Positions 11,964 through 38,101 of a stretch of 39,628 bases of DNA are shown here, in pieces. The stretch comes from a virus (Duplodnaviria > Heunggongvirae > Uroviricota > Caudoviricetes). Position 1 is the stretch's first letter; the number at the start of each line of letters is the position of its first letter. The notes beneath the pieces were generated by a model. That model did not search any database. It was not told the origin of the DNA and saw only the letters and a list, made by a program, of their open reading frames with translations. Position numbers and translations under genes: made by a program. Where the stretch lies: IMG/VR virus record IMGVR_UViG_2554235126_000004. One strand, written 5' to 3'.

Positions 11964-11980
11964 TTTTGTGGAGAAATTTG

Positions 11981-12346
11981 ATGCGTGATATTCAGATCAT
12001 CCTTGAACGTTGGGGGGCATGGGCAGCTAGTGATAGCTCAGGAGTGGACTATTCGCCTATAGCTGCTGGGTTTAAGGGACTTCTTCCCTATACCAGTAAG
12101 GCACGCCAAGCTTGTTCAGATAATGATGCGCTAATTATTGAAAGTTGCTTGGAGCAACTAAAAAAAAGAAAACCTTATGAGCATTCTTTACTGGTTGCGC
12201 ATTATTTGTACGGGTTTTCAAAGCGGAAGATTGCCAAAATACAAGGAAAGGATGAGAAATTAATCCGTATAGAAATATTGTTAGCAGAGGGATTCATTGA
12301 TGGTTGCCTTTCTACTCTCGATATTCATTTAGATATGGAGTTATAA
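11981..12346 (+). CDS. late-gene antiterminator Q (QuuD / phage 82-type family)
   Basis: Start placed at ATG 11981 (MRDIQIILERWGAWAA...) with GGAG RBS; strong pattern match to the Phage_antitermQ family as recalled. Confidence 0.8.
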   Translation: MRDIQIILERWGAWAASDSSGVDYSPIAAGFKGLLPYTSKARQACSDNDALIIESCLEQLKKRKPYEHSLLVAHYLYGFSKRKIAKIQGKDEKLIRIEILLAEGFIDGCLSTLDIHLDMEL

Positions 12347-12386: not shown

Positions 12387-13202
12387 TTATTTCTTTTTTT
12401 TATTACTTTCAGATAATCGTTGGTTTAATGTGTATTTTATTTGGTTCCTAATCATTTTTTCAGGAATGTCATATTTGTCTAAGAATGATATTATTTCATC
12501 CTCGTCAAGCAATCCATTCTTTATAATTTCATCTATCTGTTTTTGTAGATACCAAACATCCTTCTGTTCTACAGGAGTTAAATTCATATGGCTATTTATG
12601 GAGTTGATAGTAGCATCACGTTCAAGAACTCTAATCCTTTGATTTAATGAACGAGTGTTTTGTAATATTTCAGATAAAAGATCTTGTTCAGTACGTGGTT
12701 TTACTTCTTCAGTTGGAGGGTATTGATCTAAAGCTCGTTTAAAATTGTTTTCAAATTGCTCCCAGTATGTATTAAAAACTTGCTTTAGAATACGGTCATC
12801 TAAAGATTTATCGACAAGACAATTGTTTATTGTCCTTACTAATTCCCAAACACTCTCTTTATTTGGCGTTGTGTGATTGAATTGAGCAAGTGGATCTTTT
12901 AAATCTTCTGGTTTTAAGTCAATCAAGAATGTACAAACTTTATTTGTTGAAAGTCCTTTTGCTAGTGCTCCTGTTTCAAACAAAATCCATGGTTTATTTT
13001 TATTTTCTTGTGTCAAACATACAATGCCGACAGATACATCTTTTAATTTATCATTAATTTCAGAGAACCATATAGCGCCACGATCAATATCTCTGGTTGA
13101 AATCCATGGCTGCGAAGCTTGGATAACACACTTCAGCCAGTCGCTAATAAGTTCTGCAACAGCTTGACTTCTTTGCCCAGACCAACTTATGAACACTTTC
13201 AT
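12387..13202 (-). CDS. TIR-like domain protein with uncharacterised helical C-terminal domain (candidate anti-phage defence effector)
   Basis: Start placed at ATG 13202 (MKVFISWSG...) with GGAG RBS; N-terminal pattern KVFISWS ... GIVCLTQEN ... PWILFETG (Trp/Glu motif) typical of bacterial TIR / TIR-like domains; AT-rich; opposite strand to flanking late genes. Confidence 0.6.
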   Translation of the reverse strand: MKVFISWSGQRSQAVAELISDWLKCVIQASQPWISTRDIDRGAIWFSEINDKLKDVSVGIVCLTQENKNKPWILFETGALAKGLSTNKVCTFLIDLKPEDLKDPLAQFNHTTPNKESVWELVRTINNCLVDKSLDDRILKQVFNTYWEQFENNFKRALDQYPPTEEVKPRTEQDLLSEILQNTRSLNQRIRVLERDATINSINSHMNLTPVEQKDVWYLQKQIDEIIKNGLLDEDEIISFLDKYDIPEKMIRNQIKYTLNQRLSESNKKKK

Positions 13203-19643: not shown

Positions 19644-20060
19644 ATGGCGGTAGATATTAAAGATGTCGAACAGGTCGCGCAGGAGCTGCAGCAGAAGTTT
19701 GACGACTTCAAAGCAAAGAACGACAAGCGCGTGGATGCGATTGAGCAGGAAAAAGGCAAACTTGCCGGGCAGGTGGAAACCCTGAACGGGAAACTCAGCG
19801 AGCTGGAAAACCTCAAAAGCGATCTTGAAAAAGAGCTGCTTGAGCTGAAACGTCCGGCAGGTGGTGCGCAAAATAAACTGGCCACCGAGCATAAAGAAGC
19901 GTTTGTGGGCTTCCTGCGTAAAGGCCGTGAAGATGGTCTGCGCGATCTGGAGCGTAAGGCATTGCAGGTGGGCACCGATGAAGACGGTGGCTATGCCGTG
20001 CCGGAAGCGCTGGATCGCAACATTCTCACCCTGCTGAAAGATGAAGTGGTGATGCGCTAG
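19644..20060 (+). CDS. major capsid protein, N-terminal scaffold (delta-like) domain; ends at in-frame TAG
   Basis: 138-aa coiled-coil-rich product; TAG at 20058-20060 is in the same frame as the downstream capsid ORF. Confidence 0.7.
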   Translation: MAVDIKDVEQVAQELQQKFDDFKAKNDKRVDAIEQEKGKLAGQVETLNGKLSELENLKSDLEKELLELKRPAGGAQNKLATEHKEAFVGFLRKGREDGLRDLERKALQVGTDEDGGYAVPEALDRNILTLLKDEVVMR

Positions 20061-20069
20061 GAAGCCACG

Positions 20070-20849
20070 GTGATCACCGTTGGCGGTTCCGACTACAAAA
20101 AACTGGTGAATCTGGGCGGCACGGCTTCCGGATGGGTGGGGGAAACGGATACGCGATCCCAGACTGCCACCTCCAAACTGGAGCTGATTGAACCTCTCAT
20201 GGGGGAAATCTACGGCAACCCGCAGGCCACCCAGAAAATGCTGGACGATGCCTTCTTCAACGTGGAGGCCTGGATCAACAGCGAGCTGGCAACCGAATTT
20301 GCCGAACAGGAAGAAATTGCCTTTACCTCAGGCGATGGCACCAAGAAGCCGAAAGGGTTCCTGGCGTATGAATCCACTGATGAAACCGATAAGGTCCGGG
20401 CGTTCGGCAAACTTCAGCATATTGTATCCGGCGAAGCGACTGCGGTGACCGCAGACGCCATTATCAAACTTATTTACACACTGCGTAAGGCACACCGCAC
20501 CGGTGCGAAGTTCATGATGAACAACAACAGCCTGTTTGCCATCCGTCTGCTGAAAGACAGCGAGGGTAACTATCTGTGGCGTCCGGGGCTGGAGCTGGGG
20601 CAGCCGTCCTCTCTGGCGGGTTACGGTATCGCTGAAAACGAACAGATGCCGGATATCGCCGCTGATGCGAAAGCCATTGCATTTGGTAACTTCAAACGGG
20701 GTTACACCATCGTTGACCGTATCGGCACCCGCATTCTGCGTGACCCGTACACCAATAAACCGTTTGTCGGTTTTTATACCACCAAACGCACCGGCGGCAT
20801 GCTGGTCGATTCGCAGGCCATCAAACTGCTGAAGATTGCAGTGGCGTAA
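20070..20849 (+). CDS. major capsid protein, HK97-fold body (GTG start; in frame with upstream ORF across TAG)
   Basis: 259 aa; same frame as 19644..20060 separated by TAG-GAA-GCC-ACG; AGGAAG lies 5 nt upstream of GTG 20070. Confidence 0.75.
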   Translation: MITVGGSDYKKLVNLGGTASGWVGETDTRSQTATSKLELIEPLMGEIYGNPQATQKMLDDAFFNVEAWINSELATEFAEQEEIAFTSGDGTKKPKGFLAYESTDETDKVRAFGKLQHIVSGEATAVTADAIIKLIYTLRKAHRTGAKFMMNNNSLFAIRLLKDSEGNYLWRPGLELGQPSSLAGYGIAENEQMPDIAADAKAIAFGNFKRGYTIVDRIGTRILRDPYTNKPFVGFYTTKRTGGMLVDSQAIKLLKIAVA

Positions 20850-24884: not shown

Positions 24885-25153
24885 TGAAAGAGCTTGAGTT
24901 AAAGAAACCGATTACTGCTCATGGCGAGACACTCTCCGTACTGGAGTTTGATGAACCCACCGGGAAGGATGTCCGCGAGCTGGGGTATCCCTACCAGATG
25001 AATCAGGATGAGTCAGTCAGACTTCTGGCGCATGTGGTGTCGAAATACATTGTGCGGCTGGCGAAAGTGCCGCAAAGCTCTGTCGACCAGATGTCTCCGG
25101 CAGACCTGAATGCAGCGGCGTGGCTTGTGGCTGGTTTTTTCCTCCAGGCTTGA
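24884..25153 (+). CDS. tail assembly chaperone (short form)
   Basis: 89 aa; contains slippery heptamer T TTT TTC at 25135-25141 near its 3' end. Confidence 0.7.
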   Translation: MKELELKKPITAHGETLSVLEFDEPTGKDVRELGYPYQMNQDESVRLLAHVVSKYIVRLAKVPQSSVDQMSPADLNAAAWLVAGFFLQA

Positions 25154-25308
25154 CGGCTGAATACCTCACTGATCGCTTCTTTGACTGCGCCAGCTACTGG
25201 CGCATTAATCCTTTCGAATTGCTGAATATGCCGATCAGTGAAATTCCCTTGCTGGTCAGTCAGGCAAACAGGATAGAGCAGGAGAAACGCACACATGGCG
25301 GAATTTGA
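25120..25308 (+). CDS. tail assembly chaperone -1 frameshift extension (long form = 24884..25141 fused to 25141..25308)
   Basis: -1 frame ORF overlaps the slippery site and continues to just inside the tape measure gene. Confidence 0.55.
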   Translation: MACGWFFPPGLTAEYLTDRFFDCASYWRINPFELLNMPISEIPLLVSQANRIEQEKRTHGGI

Positions 25309-27127
25309 GCTTAAGGCGTTGATCACCGGTGTCGACAGGCTTTCTCCCGCGCTGTCGAAAATGCAAAAGAAAATCCGGGGATTTAAACGCCAGGCGGAAG
25401 AAGCGTCACAGGGTGGGCTGGCGCTTGGTGGCGGACTGGCTGCGGGTCTGACGCTTTCCCTGAAATCTTATGCCGATCAGGAAAACGCCGCCACCGGGCT
25501 GAAAGTTGCCATGATGGATGCGAACGGTGAGGTCGGAAAGCGCTTTCAGGACATCAATAAACTGGCTATTGGTCTGGGTAACCAGCTACCCGGTACAACG
25601 GCTGATTTCCAGAACATGATGCAGATGCTGGTGCGTCAGGGGATCCCGGCAGAAAACATTCTTGGTGGTGTGGGTAAAGCGACAGCTTATCTTGCGGTAC
25701 AACTGAAAAAAACACCGGAAGCGGCTGCTGAGTTTGCTGCAAAGATGCAGGATGCTACCGGAACGGCGTCAGAAGACATGATGGGGCTGTTCGACACTAT
25801 CCAGAAGGCGTTTTATCTGGGCGTTGATGATACCAACATGTTGTCCTTCTTCACTAAAACCAGTTCTGTTCTGAAAATGGTGAATAAGGACGGTCTTCAG
25901 GCTGCACAGAGCCTTGCCCCTATCAGCGTCATGATGGATCAGATGGGGATGAACGGGGAGTCGGCAGGTAATGCCCTGCGAAAAGTTATCCAGTCCGGAT
26001 TAAGCGTTAAGAAAATCAGGGACGTCAATAAAGTCATGGCCCGCCAGAAACTCGGAGTGCAGCTCGATTTTACTGACGGCAAAGGGAGTTTTGGCGGTCT
26101 TGATAACATGTTTAAGCAACTGGCAAAGCTGCGAAAACTGACCGACGTTAAGCGAACAGGTGTACTTAAGGCAATATTTGGTGATGATGCCGAAACCCTT
26201 CAGGTGGTCAATGCTCTGATCGATAAAGGAAAGGATGGTTACGATCAGATCCAGCAGAAGATGAATAAACAGGCTAGCCTGAATAAACGTGTTCAGGCCC
26301 AGCTTGGTACGCTGTCCAACCTGTGGGAGGCAATGACGGGGACCGCAACTAACGGCCTTGCGGCTATTGGCGGCGCATTTTCTGGTGACGCCAAAAATAT
26401 CACGCAATGGCTGGGGGAGTTAGGGGAAAAATTCACGAAGTTTGCGGATGAAAATCCCCGGGTTATTCGCAGCGTCGTCGGGCTTGCTGCCGGTCTTGCG
26501 ATTCTGAAACTGGGATTGATGGGCGTGGGCAGTGCCATCAGTATTGTCAGCAGGATTATGTCGATGACGCCGATTGGCATGATTGCGACGGCGATTGCTC
26601 TGGCTGCGGGATTAATTATCACTAACTGGGATGTTGTCGGACCTTATTTTAAGAAGCTCTGGGAAACCATTGGTCCTTATTTTGAGGCTGGCTGGGAACT
26701 TCTGAAGAAAGTTTTTGCCTGGTCGCCGCTGGGAATGGTGATCAATAACTGGGGACCGGTTGTTAAGTGGTTTCAGGATATGTGGGACAAGCTGAAGCCA
26801 ATTATTGAGTGGTTTACCGACAGTTCCGGTGACACGGTCGATGCCATTAACTCGGCGCAGTGGGGCGCGGGTGCTTATGATGCTTATGGGACGGGAATAC
26901 CGCCACGGGGATACACTCCTTATCCGGAGGTGGATCCGGCTCAGGCAAACAACGCCTCCGGTGCCACAGGCCCGAATCCCTTCATGATTAATAAAGCTAC
27001 CGCGCCAAAAGTTGATGGTGAGATCAAGGTATCATTTATAAATATGCCATCAGGTATGCGGGTTACGGAAACACGCTCCAGTGGCATTGATATAAATCAC
27101 GATGTTGGCTATACCCGATTTTGGTAG
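25295..27127 (+). CDS. tail tape measure protein
   Basis: 610 aa, Ala/Gly-rich helical repeats plus C-terminal hydrophobic region. Confidence 0.9.
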   Translation: MAEFELKALITGVDRLSPALSKMQKKIRGFKRQAEEASQGGLALGGGLAAGLTLSLKSYADQENAATGLKVAMMDANGEVGKRFQDINKLAIGLGNQLPGTTADFQNMMQMLVRQGIPAENILGGVGKATAYLAVQLKKTPEAAAEFAAKMQDATGTASEDMMGLFDTIQKAFYLGVDDTNMLSFFTKTSSVLKMVNKDGLQAAQSLAPISVMMDQMGMNGESAGNALRKVIQSGLSVKKIRDVNKVMARQKLGVQLDFTDGKGSFGGLDNMFKQLAKLRKLTDVKRTGVLKAIFGDDAETLQVVNALIDKGKDGYDQIQQKMNKQASLNKRVQAQLGTLSNLWEAMTGTATNGLAAIGGAFSGDAKNITQWLGELGEKFTKFADENPRVIRSVVGLAAGLAILKLGLMGVGSAISIVSRIMSMTPIGMIATAIALAAGLIITNWDVVGPYFKKLWETIGPYFEAGWELLKKVFAWSPLGMVINNWGPVVKWFQDMWDKLKPIIEWFTDSSGDTVDAINSAQWGAGAYDAYGTGIPPRGYTPYPEVDPAQANNASGATGPNPFMINKATAPKVDGEIKVSFINMPSGMRVTETRSSGIDINHDVGYTRFW

Positions 27128-27155
27128 CCAGGATTCCCCTCACAGGTATTGCTGG

Positions 27156-27183
27156 TTGTAAGTCATAAATAGAGTGATAGAAT
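27156..27183 (+). promoter_or_regulatory. candidate sigma70 promoter of the moron gene (TTGTAA-N16-TAGAAT)
   Basis: -35 at 27156-27161, -10 at 27178-27183, about 35 bp upstream of ATG 27219. Confidence 0.35.
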
Positions 27184-27218
27184 TAATGCACATTTAGAAA
27201 AATGTTAATAGGCGAAAA

Positions 27219-27749
27219 ATGAAAGGCTATATCACAGCAAGTGTAATTCTTGGAGCAGCGGCTATTTTTTCATCTCTCATAATCTCTGGCAACATCTCCT
27301 TTAAAGATGAACATATTATTCAGTTATCTGGAGGAGCCATAAAACTTGGTGATGTTTATAAAGAAAATAAATTGATAAGTGCAAAGATTATTTTTCCAGA
27401 TAATCAGGGTGAACAGATTCTTGTTGTCGACGGCAATCCTGAAAACTTTAAGGAGGATTTTCAGGAGAAATTAAATAAAGTAATAAAAACTTTAAATGCG
27501 TCAAAGAAAAAAGATGAAGAGAAAGTTAGCCTGGATAATTTAAGTGTTGTTGAAGAGTCTAAACTAGAGCTCATTTCTGCGGTGCGTTACTCTGCTCAGT
27601 ATGTTCCTATGTTTACTCTGACGCTGGACAAAAAAGAAATTACCATGCCTAAAAATACGGTAATATTTCCATTTGCCAGCGATGAAACAGCTAAGTATTT
27701 AAATGAACAACAGCAAAAGTATAAAGATTCGTTGTTTCTGACTCGCTAA
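27219..27749 (+). CDS. moron: signal-anchored / secreted hypothetical protein
   Basis: 176 aa, N-terminal hydrophobic segment ITASVILGAAAIFSSLIISG, Lys/Glu-rich; markedly AT-rich; own promoter-like sequence and strong terminator. Confidence 0.6.
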   Translation: MKGYITASVILGAAAIFSSLIISGNISFKDEHIIQLSGGAIKLGDVYKENKLISAKIIFPDNQGEQILVVDGNPENFKEDFQEKLNKVIKTLNASKKKDEEKVSLDNLSVVEESKLELISAVRYSAQYVPMFTLTLDKKEITMPKNTVIFPFASDETAKYLNEQQQKYKDSLFLTR

Positions 27750-27767
27750 TTAATAAAATTCATTACA

Positions 27768-27798
27768 AGGCCACCTTCTAATAGGTGGCTTTTTTTTC
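27768..27798 (+). terminator. rho-independent terminator of moron gene
   Basis: Stem GCCACCT/AGGTGGC with 6-nt loop followed by T8. Confidence 0.7.
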
Positions 27799-27807
27799 GG
27801 AGTGTAT

Positions 27808-29136
27808 ATGACGTGGAAAGACAGGCTTCAGGATGCGTCATTTCGAGGTGTGCCGTTTAAGGTTGAAGAAGAAAGTGCGGGAACCGGCCGTCGTGTGGAA
27901 ACACACGAATATCCGAACCGCGACAAACCCTATACCGAAGATCTGGGAAAAGTCACTTTCCGCCCGTCCATCACAGCTTATGTGGTGGGAGATGACTGCT
28001 TTGACCAGCGCGATCGCCTGATTGAAGCGCTGAATAAACCCGGTCCCGGCACGCTTGTCCACCCGACATATGGTGAGCTGAAAGTCTGTGTTGACGGGGA
28101 AGTTCGGGTCAGCACATCGAAAAGTGAAGGGCGTATTGTCCGCTTTGACCTGAAGTTTGTCGAAGCGGGAGAACTCTCTTACCCCACATCAGGTGCGGCG
28201 ACGGCGCAGACGCTGATGTCATCCTGTTCTGCACTGGATGACTGCATCAGTGACAGTTTCAGTGGTTTCAGTATCGATGGCGTGGCAGATTTTGTGCAGA
28301 ACGACGTCGTCGGTAATGCCGGCACAATGCTTGGGTATATTTCTGATGCGATGAAAGTGGTGGATTCTGCCGTATCGGATGCCGCCAGGCTGTTGCAGGG
28401 GGATATCTCGGTACTTCTGCCGCCGCCATCGTCAGGCAAAAATTTCGTTGAGCAGGTGCAGAAAATGTGGCGTACCGGGAAACGCCTTTATGGTAACGCC
28501 AGCGACCTGGTCACCATGATCAAAACGCTTTCCGGTGTCAGCCTCGGCAGCGATCTGCAACCGCGCGGCGTCTGGAAAACGGACAGTAAAACCACCGCCA
28601 CGGCGACGCAGCAGCGTAACGTGGTTGCCAGCACCCTTCGTACGACCGCAATCAGCGAAGCGGCGTATGCCGTCACCCGATTGCCTGCGCCAACAACTTC
28701 CGCGGTGATGCAGAATGCCGCAGTGGGGCAGGCAACAACAGCTGCGCAGAGCACCGGCTGGCCTTCCGTCACGCATCCGGCACTGAACAATGCACCGGCG
28801 GTGAAAAACACGGTTGATCTGCCGACGTGGGAAGAACTGACTGACATTCGCGACACACTGAATACGGCAATTGATAAGGAGTTGTCCCGTACAACCAGTG
28901 ATGCGCTGTTTCTGGCGCTGCGCCGGGTGAAAGCAGATCTGAATGCGGATATCAACACGCGCCTTGAACAGTCTGCACGGATCATTCAGCGCACGCCGGA
29001 TGAGGTTTTACCCGCGCTGGTGCTGGCGGCGACCTGGTTTGATAACGCGGCGCGTGACGCGGACATTATCCGGCGTAATGCCATTACGCATCCCGGCTTT
29101 GTGCCGGTGATCCCTCTGAAGGTGCCAGTACAATGA
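27808..29136 (+). CDS. DNA circulation protein (Mu gpN-like)
   Basis: Start placed at ATG 27808 with GGAG RBS; N-terminus resembles Mu N family. Confidence 0.8.
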   Translation: MTWKDRLQDASFRGVPFKVEEESAGTGRRVETHEYPNRDKPYTEDLGKVTFRPSITAYVVGDDCFDQRDRLIEALNKPGPGTLVHPTYGELKVCVDGEVRVSTSKSEGRIVRFDLKFVEAGELSYPTSGAATAQTLMSSCSALDDCISDSFSGFSIDGVADFVQNDVVGNAGTMLGYISDAMKVVDSAVSDAARLLQGDISVLLPPPSSGKNFVEQVQKMWRTGKRLYGNASDLVTMIKTLSGVSLGSDLQPRGVWKTDSKTTATATQQRNVVASTLRTTAISEAAYAVTRLPAPTTSAVMQNAAVGQATTAAQSTGWPSVTHPALNNAPAVKNTVDLPTWEELTDIRDTLNTAIDKELSRTTSDALFLALRRVKADLNADINTRLEQSARIIQRTPDEVLPALVLAATWFDNAARDADIIRRNAITHPGFVPVIPLKVPVQ

Positions 29137-35236: not shown

Positions 35237-37126
35237 TTAATCGTATTTTGGCCATACTTTCAATGCAATTTCCCCCAACTTTTTACCTCGCTCCAGTATT
35301 TCACTCTCATCCCATTTATCCTTAAGTATAAGTGGTATGTTCAGTCGTAGATTGGTGTGGACGATGAGAGCATCACGTTTTTTCAGAAATACAGCATTCT
35401 GAACGGAACGGTTTACGCTAAGGTTAAGCAAAGTTAGATTTCCCAACGTAGCTATCGCTTGTTGCCGTTTCCTTACCAGTAGCTGTTCAGGGGTAAGATC
35501 GGTTCCAGACAGAACAATTTGGTTCATTACCGTAGCATCTGAATTTGTCACCATATGACCATTTTCGAGAGGCCAACAGGAATACCAACTTTGAGGCATA
35601 AGATGATCGATATCGAGATTAGAAAGATTTGGAACATCAGGCTTTTCTGTCTTCACTTGGCGACAAAGTTCTCTTTCAAGTTCCGTTAACATTGAGCGCA
35701 TTTTCGGTGCGTCGAGCCTGCCAGGATAAAGTGGAGCATTGATGCAAGCGTTGAGAAATTCTGAGTCCCCAGGCCAACGTGAGGCTTCGCCATTTAAGCT
35801 ATTGAGGATATTACGTAACTCAACACTGGAAATTTCCGTTTTAGACAAGTGTCGCAATACATTCATAAATACATTGTTGTAATTCTTTGGCGTCAGGCCA
35901 CATACGGATCTTCGTACTACGTAGGAGACAAGATCATTATACATGGCTGCTTTCTCATCATCGGCGATGTTAGCTATCGAAATGAACAAAGCAAGCGGAT
36001 AGAGTGTCGTCACATCATAGGCTGCGATGCGATGTCCAAAGTGTGAGATGGGGGTTGTGCCAAAACCACCAACCAATTCTTTATATTGTGATGCATATTG
36101 TTTGAGGCGCTTTACTTGCAGATCTGCTCGTTGTGAAGGCAAGTCCTTACTTACATAATCACGATACTCATTGTAAAGGCGAGACAGATCAATTTCACGC
36201 TGCCTTTCTGATTGCAATGTCGCATGTACAAGCCACTCCATGCGTGGTTTATTAATACGTCCACGGCGTTGCTTTTCCGACCAGTATTTATCTTCAAAGA
36301 TCTTCCACTCATTTTCATATAATTCAATAGCATTAATATTTTCATGCTCAGCGCACATAAAGATATAGTTGCGAATAAGATCCGTTGCATGAAGTTCCGC
36401 TCCTCGCCCATTTAATGTTTCAAAAATTATTTGGGCATCATCTTCAGCTTCGAGAAATATGCTTACCAGTTTCAGATCCGTCAAGACAGCCTCAATTAGT
36501 GCTACAGCATTTTCTTGTGGTGAGTGGTTTTCTATTTTAATCCATTTTATAAAGGCTTCAGTAAAAAACCATAATGCCTCTAGTGACGGCGGGTGGTTGA
36601 AATGTTTACGTAACGTACCATGTTGCGTGAAGCTATCAGAAAATACATTACGGAGATCGTCAATATTATCAACATTAAGACTTTGAATAAAATGAGTTTG
36701 ATCTCGAAAAGTTGGCCACAGTTTGAAGCATTCTACCTTTTTATTTCTCATCGTTGCTTCGTTTGTATTTTTCAAGCAAGTCAATACTAACCCTTCCAGT
36801 TCAGAAAGGCCTGTAGCACGCAATGATAATCGAATGGATGCCAGAATATATTGAAGAGTGGTTAAACGTTGCTGGCCGTCAATAATATGTATGGTATCTA
36901 CACCTAACAAGCTGTTTTTGAGTTGAGGTTCCAGCACCACCGCGCCGAGGAAATGAGGGGTTGGTTTTGTTCCCGAAAGTCGGCTCTGTGCTTTTTCGAA
37001 GATATCCTCCAGCAAAGCTGACCATTGGTTTCGTTGCGTCCATACGTAGGCACGTTGATAGAATGGAACACGATATTGTCGTTGATTTTGGAAAATTTGC
37101 TGGATGGTTAGCGTTTCGGATTTCAT
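35237..37126 (-). CDS. GmrSD-family type IV restriction endonuclease-like protein (DUF262 N-terminal, DUF1524 His-Me finger C-terminal)
   Basis: 629 aa; N-terminal FYQRAYVW and IIDGQQRLTTL (DGQQR) motifs; C-terminal ...DIDHLMPQSW...GNLTLLNLSVNRS; AT-rich. Confidence 0.8.
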   Translation of the reverse strand: MKSETLTIQQIFQNQRQYRVPFYQRAYVWTQRNQWSALLEDIFEKAQSRLSGTKPTPHFLGAVVLEPQLKNSLLGVDTIHIIDGQQRLTTLQYILASIRLSLRATGLSELEGLVLTCLKNTNEATMRNKKVECFKLWPTFRDQTHFIQSLNVDNIDDLRNVFSDSFTQHGTLRKHFNHPPSLEALWFFTEAFIKWIKIENHSPQENAVALIEAVLTDLKLVSIFLEAEDDAQIIFETLNGRGAELHATDLIRNYIFMCAEHENINAIELYENEWKIFEDKYWSEKQRRGRINKPRMEWLVHATLQSERQREIDLSRLYNEYRDYVSKDLPSQRADLQVKRLKQYASQYKELVGGFGTTPISHFGHRIAAYDVTTLYPLALFISIANIADDEKAAMYNDLVSYVVRRSVCGLTPKNYNNVFMNVLRHLSKTEISSVELRNILNSLNGEASRWPGDSEFLNACINAPLYPGRLDAPKMRSMLTELERELCRQVKTEKPDVPNLSNLDIDHLMPQSWYSCWPLENGHMVTNSDATVMNQIVLSGTDLTPEQLLVRKRQQAIATLGNLTLLNLSVNRSVQNAVFLKKRDALIVHTNLRLNIPLILKDKWDESEILERGKKLGEIALKVWPKYD

Positions 37127-37936
37127 TGTTTACCTATAAATAACATTAAGTGACATTCCACAAGAGTAAGAAATTCATCTGAGTCAGAACAATCATTTTT
37201 ATGTAGTTATGATACAGTGTATTTGTTACTGGTGAAGTAAAAATAAGAAACCCCGCTTTTGAATGCTGACGCGCTACGGTTTCATTGGATATTTTTTGTC
37301 TCTCCTCCATCCCGTTGGTGTTCTGTTTAGAATGATAACTTGCTGTTTTTATTGATATTAGTTTATTGCGCCGCCCAATCATGGTTGGTGGGTTGGTGGG
37401 AGTTAAATCCACATTGGTATGAATAACATAGAATATGAATTAGTGTTTCAGAATTGCTTCAGCCATCACTTTTTAATACGTTCAATTTGAATGTTTATTT
37501 CCGAAACAATTTTTTCAGGTTTCAGTCCCTCGTTAGATTGCACAAAATCTCTAATTTGCATCATTCGATGTGCACAAATTTATAATTCGCTATAAACACT
37601 TAGCTCGTCAGATTCATTTTGAGATTGTTCACCTATTTAAAATTCTACATAAGTATGTGGCGGATTGTGATAAACACGAGAAATCGGGGTTGGCCACCAT
37701 TCCTCACCGGTCACTACGTCCGCATCGAATAGTACAGTTTTGTCAATTTCCATTAATTTCTGGATAAGAACAGAAGTTTTCAAGCGAACCTCCATTTGGC
37801 CATAAAGTGGTTATCAAAACGCTACGTAAACTATACAAAATCAGCGAGTTATGGTGAAGGTAAAAAAACAAGTTTAGATGTTCGTTAAGCATAAAATTGT
37901 TTTAATTCAATTGGATATAATAATTTTCTAAATCTA

Positions 37937-38101
37937 ATGTTACGCCATATGGGCTGGACTGAAGCCGCAGACTTGATTGTTAAAGGTATGGAAGGCGCAA
38001 TCAATGCGAAGACCGTAACCTATGATTTCGAACGTCTGATGGAAGGTGCTAAACTGCTGAAATGCAGCGAGTTTGGTGATGCGATCATCAAGAACATGTA
38101 A
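37937..38101 (+). pseudogene. icdC: icd (isocitrate dehydrogenase) 3'-terminal fragment at prophage/chromosome junction
   Basis: Translation [54 protein letters not shown] matches the Icd C-terminus as recalled; no upstream icd coding sequence. Confidence 0.8.

Follow-up and report, generated by a model that had tools for sequence, protein, structure and literature searches.

What is a lone AT-rich gene doing inside the compact tail operon of a prophage, between the genes for the tape measure and for DNA circulation? The question is raised by a 39,628-nucleotide stretch of caudoviricete DNA (IMG/VR virus record IMGVR_UViG_2554235126_000004; hereafter the window), where a cassette encoding a protein of 176 amino acids occupies this interval. 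A reading made from the letters without database searches (the sequence-only reading) had taken it for a self-contained moron, consisting of promoter, signal-anchored protein and terminator, and had suggested superinfection exclusion or host interaction as its role. The status of the cassette is secure. It sits in a slot whose occupancy varies among phages and prophages, it deviates from its surroundings in base composition, it ends in a terminator of its own, its gene is by substitution patterns under purifying selection, and relatives of the gene are present on other mobile elements. In these respects the element is an uncharacterised example of a well-known phenomenon, the moron in a tail operon. 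Taken as a whole, the locus is best explained as an exchanged moron for an envelope protein whose most likely role would be superinfection exclusion, a reading that we favour at somewhat less than even chances.

The cassette is the block that extends on the plus strand from the stop codon of the tape-measure gene to the ribosome-binding site of the DNA-circulation gene (27128..27797). Both flanking genes lie on the same strand, and Pfam assigns them as the sequence-only reading had named them. The tape-measure gene (25295..27127; PhageMin_Tail, E 5.7e-27) provides the left edge of the variable slot with its stop codon, and the Mu gpN-like DNA-circulation gene (27808..29136; DNA_circ_N, E 3.6e-34) provides the right edge with its GGAG ribosome-binding site (27799-27802, plus strand). 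The coding sequence itself, as given in the list of open reading frames (ORFs), runs from 27219 to 27749 on the plus strand and is AT-rich as described, with a guanine-plus-cytosine (GC) fraction of 0.343 versus 0.549 in the 3-kb flanks. Sliding GC falls to 0.34-0.37 across 27000-27800 only and is 0.48-0.61 in sliding windows clear of the block. The sheath, tube and chaperone genes overlap or abut, as do the genes for DNA circulation, gpP, gp45, gp46 and gp47; the cassette ORF is separated from its neighbours by gaps of 91 and 58 nucleotides, and the interruption of a tightly overlapping operon is thereby borne out. A weak Shine-Dalgarno-like AGGCG can be read at 27210..27214 (plus strand), 4-6 nucleotides ahead of the ATG, and the start codon at 27219 is supported by the invariance of M1 across the family alignment. 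No other ORF of at least 50 amino acids is found on either strand in 27128-27800, and no ORF longer than 37 amino acids is embedded in the gene.

That this block is a separable unit follows from its close relatives. The tail module of the window is 96-97% identical in DNA to those of the Shigella serotype-converting phages SfV, SfI and SfII and of the Escherichia phages SKA5 and vB_EcoM-689R6, and the flanking tail proteins of SfII, SfV, SfI and SKA5 are 97-99% identical to those of the window. In SfII, SfV and SfI the slot is about 60 bp long and contains a terminator alone, which is annotated as such in SfII. In SKA5 it contains an unrelated gene with a GC fraction of 0.31 and its own terminator, the product of which has a classical signal peptide. 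Across six aligned slot variants, homology is lost right after the tape-measure stop codon and resumes at CGGAGTnTATATGACGTGG, which comprises the ribosome-binding site and the start of the DNA-circulation gene and which the window shares with SKA5 and SfII. Each variant has its own terminator, differing in sequence from the others. Three of the features by which Juhala and Hendrix recognise a moron are present: the gene is found here and is missing at the same position in the close relatives SfII, SfV and SfI, its base composition deviates, and it has a terminator of its own. The earlier interpretation as a moron is upheld by the empty slot of the Shigella phages, the different cargo in SKA5 and in E. 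coli prophages, and the sharp edges of homology.

The slot is widespread. The junction of tape-measure and DNA-circulation genes was found in 1096 of 5426 complete E. coli genomes, 170 of which carry the 176-residue cargo; the cassette by itself was matched in 179 E. coli genomes. For a census of cargos, 60 of the 1104 matching E. coli records were sampled at even spacing. About half of these slots are empty, ten hold the 176-residue cargo, and five other cargos occur. One is a secreted, SKA5-type protein of 164 amino acids with a signal peptide (L001 3433-3927, plus strand). A lipoprotein of 225 amino acids with the lipobox LLGGC (L016 819-1496, plus strand) and a bPH_1 PH-domain protein beside an IS1 (L017 1635-1937, plus strand) occupy the same slot. 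Two further cargos lie in it on the opposite strand, namely a transmembrane-anchored OB-fold protein (tRNA_anti-like, PF12869; L014 761-1207, minus strand) and a protein of 145 amino acids with two transmembrane segments (L028 701-1138, minus strand). All of the alternative cargos are of low GC, and five of the six cargo types have an export or membrane signal. Neither of the two slot cargos tested with PADLOC gave a match. We recognise the slot as a hotspot for multiple cargos, with envelope proteins enriched among them, and this recognition is an addition of the present analysis.

Variable cargo hotspots are a familiar feature of temperate phages, exemplified by the defence hotspots of P2 and P4 and by the bor/lom region of lambda. 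The slot described here resembles them in its fixed position between conserved genes and in being either empty or filled with unrelated, AT-rich, single-gene cargos. It differs in that the cargos are overwhelmingly small envelope proteins and not recognised cytoplasmic defence systems. Direct or inverted repeats that would point to site-specific insertion were not found around the cassette, and the simplest mechanism for its exchange would be homologous recombination in the conserved flanks. In the explanation that we favour, the cassette is exchanged horizontally, and the interval that it occupies is prone to recombination. In one case an IS200-type transposase gene lies directly past the cassette terminator.

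The downstream end of the cassette is formed by a strong Rho-independent terminator at 27767..27797 on the plus strand, with a stem-loop at 27767-27792 and a run of eight T at 27790-27797. The stem (GCCACCT/AGGTGGC, 27770-27776 and 27783-27789) has seven G/C-rich pairs, extendable to ten, and encloses the loop TCTAAT. With a folding energy of -16.7 kcal/mol (z = -3.9), the hairpin is more stable than every one of 200 shuffled sequences; the textbook terminator of the sequence-only reading was in this way confirmed. A sub-threshold Rfam match to Phe_leader within the cassette proved to be merely this terminator and was rejected. The upstream end is less clear-cut. The proposed sigma70-like promoter, TTGTAA-N16-TAGAAT at 27156..27183 (plus strand), does agree with the consensus at 9 of 12 positions and has a TG one base ahead of the -10 hexamer, as in extended -10 promoters. 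This part of the claim stands, but such sites are no more frequent than expected by chance (4 in a 7-kb scan versus 4.8 +/- 2.2 in shuffled sequence), and the candidate is not conserved. An analogously placed promoter-like site is present in a relic copy in Lelliottia (see below), and a look at the corresponding position in the Leclercia homologue L003 and in SKA5 revealed none. Since the match is at chance level and was not recovered in Leclercia, expression might be confined to the late phase and depend on read-through. RNA polymerase modified by Q proteins of lambdoid phages reads through terminators, and because the prophage has a Q-type antiterminator, late tail transcription is expected to continue past the internal terminator. 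Whether the gene is also expressed from the lysogen is an evenly balanced call.

Homologues of the protein trace the cassette beyond E. coli. Copies in Leclercia-type prophages, 53-58% identical, occupy the same slot even where the tape measure is just 35% identical, and a Mangrovibacter prophage copy (38% identity) does so beside a tape measure of 22% identity. Among the IMG/VR loci, the order of tape measure, cargo and DNA circulation is kept in 76 of 80; of the remaining four, three run into a contig end at one flank, and in the other an insertion sequence (IS) separates the cargo from the DNA-circulation gene. Low GC relative to the flanks is likewise seen in the Leclercia, Lelliottia and Mangrovibacter copies. 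Other homologues lie outside tail modules altogether. In Lelliottia amnigena (L007 5652-6561), the cargo gene lies directly downstream of icd together with a promoter-like site and a terminator, and all that precedes it is the 3' end of a tape-measure gene, 31 codons long; judged from its gene content, the locus is the relic of a decayed prophage that retained its cargo. Lone chromosomal copies amid housekeeping-type genes are found in Cedecea, Kosakonia and Enterobacter. Members from marine Pseudomonas and from Halopseudomonas (23-28% identity) are cargo of small integrative islands, among whose genes are those for serine recombinases or resolvases, for a tyrosine integrase, for an Mrr nuclease or for a DUF5906 primase-like protein. 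One of these, from a metagenome-assembled genome of a marine Pseudomonas (L020 2173-13541), is an island of about 11 kb between two fragments of an FKBP_C gene, with genes for a large serine recombinase, an Mrr-type nuclease, a resolvase and the distant homologue, and it looks like an integrative element inserted in the FKBP gene. Neither a paralogue nor a constant partner gene was found beside the homologues. Two Leclercia-type copies, when compared, give a ratio of nonsynonymous to synonymous substitution rates (dN/dS) of 0.078, and the Lelliottia relic and a prophage copy give pN/pS values of 0.12/0.74; by these measures, selection on the gene is purifying.

The protein matches PHROG 5485 over its full length (residues 1-176 against profile positions 1-176, E 1.7e-107). 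This group carries no functional annotation, and membership therefore says nothing on function. An exhaustive HMMER search over 1.84 billion protein cluster representatives returned a family of only 63 clusters. Nearly all full-length members have 166-203 amino acids and the same layout, in which a positively charged N-terminus and a hydrophobic stretch of about 20 residues are followed by a domain that bears the conserved motifs G39-x3-L43-G44-x2-Y47-x-E49 and Y124...L134. In an alignment of 47 sequences, G39, L43, G44 and Y124 are invariant and Y47, E49, N93 and L134 are at least 90% conserved, and proline 130 and phenylalanine 132 are conserved among closer homologues only. The protein has no cysteine, and so is not a lipoprotein; its 21 lysines and 14 glutamates, along with 10 aspartates, agree with the Lys/Glu-rich body noted from the translation.

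Several predictions place the protein in the envelope. The Kyte-Doolittle hydropathy (19-residue window) reaches its maximum of 2.1 at residues 5-23, and a hydrophobic N-terminal helix, conserved in the family, is predicted for residues 3-23 (27225..27287, plus strand), modelled by AlphaFold2 as helix 3-22. Together with the positively charged N-terminus, these features point to the membrane anchor or signal sequence that had been proposed. The segment is predicted to be either a Sec signal peptide, which might be cleaved at IIS|G, behind the near-invariant Ser23, or an uncleaved anchor with the N-terminus in and the C-terminus out. Under either type of signal the remainder would reside in the periplasm, and we consider this export and topology highly probable. 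The AlphaFold2 model was built on the 47-sequence alignment (mean predicted local distance difference test, pLDDT, 89.5; predicted template modelling score, pTM, 0.74), the one based on 15 close homologues having been poor (pLDDT 63). After the N-terminal helix it shows a flexible linker of low confidence, a beta-hairpin (residues 33-42) and two beta-beta-alpha units (residues 46-93 and 114-171) that form a sandwich of sheet and helices; the predicted periplasmic alpha/beta domain as a whole (residues 31-173) is encoded at 27309..27737 on the plus strand.

Searches by homology and structure, suggested as a check in the sequence-only reading, were informative in part. They brought PHROG 5485, the family of 63 clusters and one structural relative. 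With either the single protein or the 47-member alignment, they gave no meaningful match in Pfam, NCBIfam, PADLOC or the sequences of the PDB, and a fold search of the model against the PDB gave no match. Nor did blastn and tblastn (E<=1) searches of 50,697 phage records match the cassette or the protein, and a literature search on the RefSeq accession and on the slot found nothing specific. The relative, which is the sole significant structural neighbour in a survey that left out AlphaFold database models of uncharacterised bacterial proteins, is a lipoprotein of Pseudomonas phage ventosus (A0A2H4P829, gene CNR37_00111; Foldseek E 5e-6, TM-score 0.56/0.66). It too is an exported phage protein and has a weak profile match to both family motifs. 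It differs in having a lipobox (LLTGC) and not a transmembrane or signal helix, in its length of 144 amino acids and in a sequence identity of 14%, and its gene lies among small genes, most of them without annotation, in a lytic, 97-kb phage for which no lysogeny genes are annotated. The protein belongs to a small family that has no match among solved structures, and the recognition of this family is a further addition of our analysis.

What could such a protein do? A close positional analogue is gp15 of phage HK97, the founding moron, a YebO-related, inner-membrane superinfection-exclusion protein (Cumby et al., 2012, summarised in PMC3594210). Its gene neighbours that for the tape measure, and the protein becomes inserted in the inner membrane and prevents genome entry with a specificity that maps to the tail (PMC3594210). 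Each of the two is a single-gene cassette of deviant composition inside a tail operon, with the tape-measure gene as its immediate neighbour. Each product has a hydrophobic N-terminal segment that directs it to the inner membrane (here by prediction), and each has homologues outside prophages. However, the two proteins share no sequence similarity, and gp15 is described as small, whereas the 176-residue protein has a predicted periplasmic alpha/beta domain of about 145 residues. The gene for gp15 lies upstream of the tape measure in a siphovirus, and the present gene lies downstream of it in a contractile tail module of the Mu type. The exclusion phenotype of gp15 is demonstrated; for the 176-residue protein, exclusion is a hypothesis.

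Phage-encoded exclusion proteins of the envelope are known from several systems and include SieA of P22, Imm and Sp of T4, Sim of P1, Cor of phi80 and N15, Llp of T5, Sie2009 of lactococcal phages and Ltp of TP-J34. The 176-residue protein is like them in being small, phage-encoded and, as predicted, exported to the membrane or periplasm, where they act at adsorption or DNA entry. It differs in genomic position, and no relation to them emerged from the tblastn search, in which the presence of these phages among the records was unchecked, from the PADLOC models or from the fold comparison with the PDB. From the envelope location, the life as cargo of mobile elements, the envelope bias of the slot cargos and the positional analogy to HK97 gp15, superinfection exclusion in the periplasm or at the inner membrane emerges as the best-supported hypothesis for function, albeit a tentative one. 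The hydrophobic N-terminal helix would send the protein across or into the inner membrane and leave its alpha/beta domain of about 145 residues in the periplasm. In the lysogen, this domain would act on an incoming phage once it has adsorbed, obstructing the passage of its tail tip or tape measure through the periplasm and inner membrane.

Location within a tail operon would by itself suggest a structural or tail-assembly protein, and an N-terminal transmembrane helix followed by a periplasmic domain of about 150 amino acids is superficially like an inner-membrane spanin. Either identity is now highly improbable and largely refuted. The protein is not a component of the tail or its assembly, because it is missing from SfV, SfI, SfII and SKA5, with tail proteins 97-99% identical, and from most E. 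coli prophages with the module, and because it is found on non-phage elements, outside tail modules. Homologues that are consistently structural tail components had been named as the finding that would overturn the moron interpretation, and the search for them turned up the reverse, same-tail phages without the gene and copies outside tails. It is not a spanin either, since the modelled domain is an alpha/beta sandwich and not a coiled coil, no lipoprotein ORF is embedded or adjacent, and the holin, endolysin and Rz1-like (LysC) genes form a separate lysis cassette elsewhere in the prophage, as annotated in E. coli strain 1190. The same dispensability in SfV, SfI and SfII weighs on the related proposal of an accessory to the lytic cycle of the phage itself, which would be transcribed with the late operon by Q-mediated read-through and act in the periplasm at the stage of assembly, release or subsequent infection, for example by keeping new virions from adsorbing to, or injecting into, cells that are already lysing, or by conditioning the envelope. 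The gene does lie inside the late operon in the same orientation, its promoter is unproven and not conserved, and its divergence roughly tracks that of the tail module (53-56% identity for Leclercia-type copies, 38% for the Mangrovibacter copy). Yet relatives reside on non-phage islands and at chromosomal loci, and the relic copy, without an upstream late operon, keeps a promoter-like site and terminator. We regard an accessory of this kind as improbable.

A further alternative is a lysogenic-conversion or host-fitness factor unrelated to phages, which would alter some property of the envelope and be kept for the benefit of the host. Stress tolerance, adhesion, resistance to serum or colicins, and signalling are candidate properties, in the manner of lambda Bor and Lom. 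The cassette features apply equally to such a factor, the gene has outlived prophage decay beside icd in Lelliottia and stands alone in the chromosomes of Cedecea, Kosakonia and Enterobacter, purifying selection on it appears strong, and moron products with such roles are documented (PMC3594210). Against this, the Pfam, NCBIfam and PDB searches revealed no similarity to known virulence or fitness factors, and in enterics the gene is found almost exclusively in the one tail slot (the 76 of 80 IMG/VR loci given above), a position beside the tape measure that is most easily rationalised by an injection-related function. We regard a host-fitness factor as the foremost rival, though less likely than not.

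The cassette resides in an SfV-type prophage of E. coli that has lambdoid head genes and a contractile tail of the Mu type and is integrated at icd. From a prophage of E. coli strain 1190 the window differs at one of 32,529 compared bases; this prophage occupies icd, the e14 site. Its regulation is lambdoid and it has a Q-family antiterminator; its holin is of the lambda type, its head of the HK97 type and its contractile tail of the Mu type. Its tail module comprises genes for sheath, tube, chaperone, tape measure, DNA circulation (Mu gpN-type), gpP/gp44, gp45, gp46 and gp47. An ORF of 62 codons (25120-25308, plus strand) overlaps the chaperone gene at its end and the tape-measure gene at its start, and has the look of the customary extension by programmed frameshift (G/GT-like). 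In the Leclercia-type prophages, two additional genes for proteins of 503-507 and 94 amino acids, without Pfam match, lie between the DNA-circulation and gpP genes (L003 8013-9808, L008 8012-9819), and this junction is a second variable slot of the same tail module. Elsewhere in the window, a TIR-domain protein is encoded at 12387-13202 (minus strand; coordinates carried over from the strain 1190 annotation), between the Q antiterminator gene (11978-12346) and the holin gene; it represents a second insertion of the moron kind and is likely to be a defence gene. Near the right end of the prophage, a DUF262 (GmrSD-like) protein is encoded at 35237-37126 (minus strand) beside a truncated recombinase, and beyond it a duplicated icd fragment at 37934-38101 marks e14-type integration at icd.

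Several observations weigh against an exchanged exclusion moron. The major capsid gene of the window prophage (19644-20849, plus strand) has an in-frame stop after about residue 138 and is annotated in strain 1190 as a pseudogene ("internal stop"); this nonsense codon means that the prophage is probably defective, though the cargo gene is intact. In one strain an IS5 lies inside the 176-residue gene. Two records (H57 and H64) carry the cargo together with a second prophage that has the same junction, at two places per record, and, subject to the order in which the prophages were acquired, give no sign of self-type exclusion. To these may be added the promoter match, which is no better than chance and lacks a counterpart upstream of the Leclercia homologue or in SKA5, and the missing sequence relation to known exclusion and defence proteins in the phage genome and PADLOC searches.

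A more far-reaching version of the exclusion hypothesis may be formulated, which we consider speculative and on present evidence unlikely. The junction of the tape-measure and DNA-circulation genes could be a dedicated hotspot for envelope-targeted anti-phage cargo, and the 176-residue protein, with a fold not represented in the PDB, could found a new family of periplasmic injection blockers. Physical linkage to the tape measure might then ensure that tail type and exclusion specificity are not separated when genomes recombine as mosaics, something at which HK97 gp15 hints for siphoviruses. If exclusion is indeed the function, a new and structurally unprecedented periplasmic family would be added to the short list of injection blockers. 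The slot, with at least six envelope cargos and present in about one fifth of complete E. coli genomes, would be a place to mine for exclusion factors, with a bearing on the host range of therapeutic phages and on prophage ecology.

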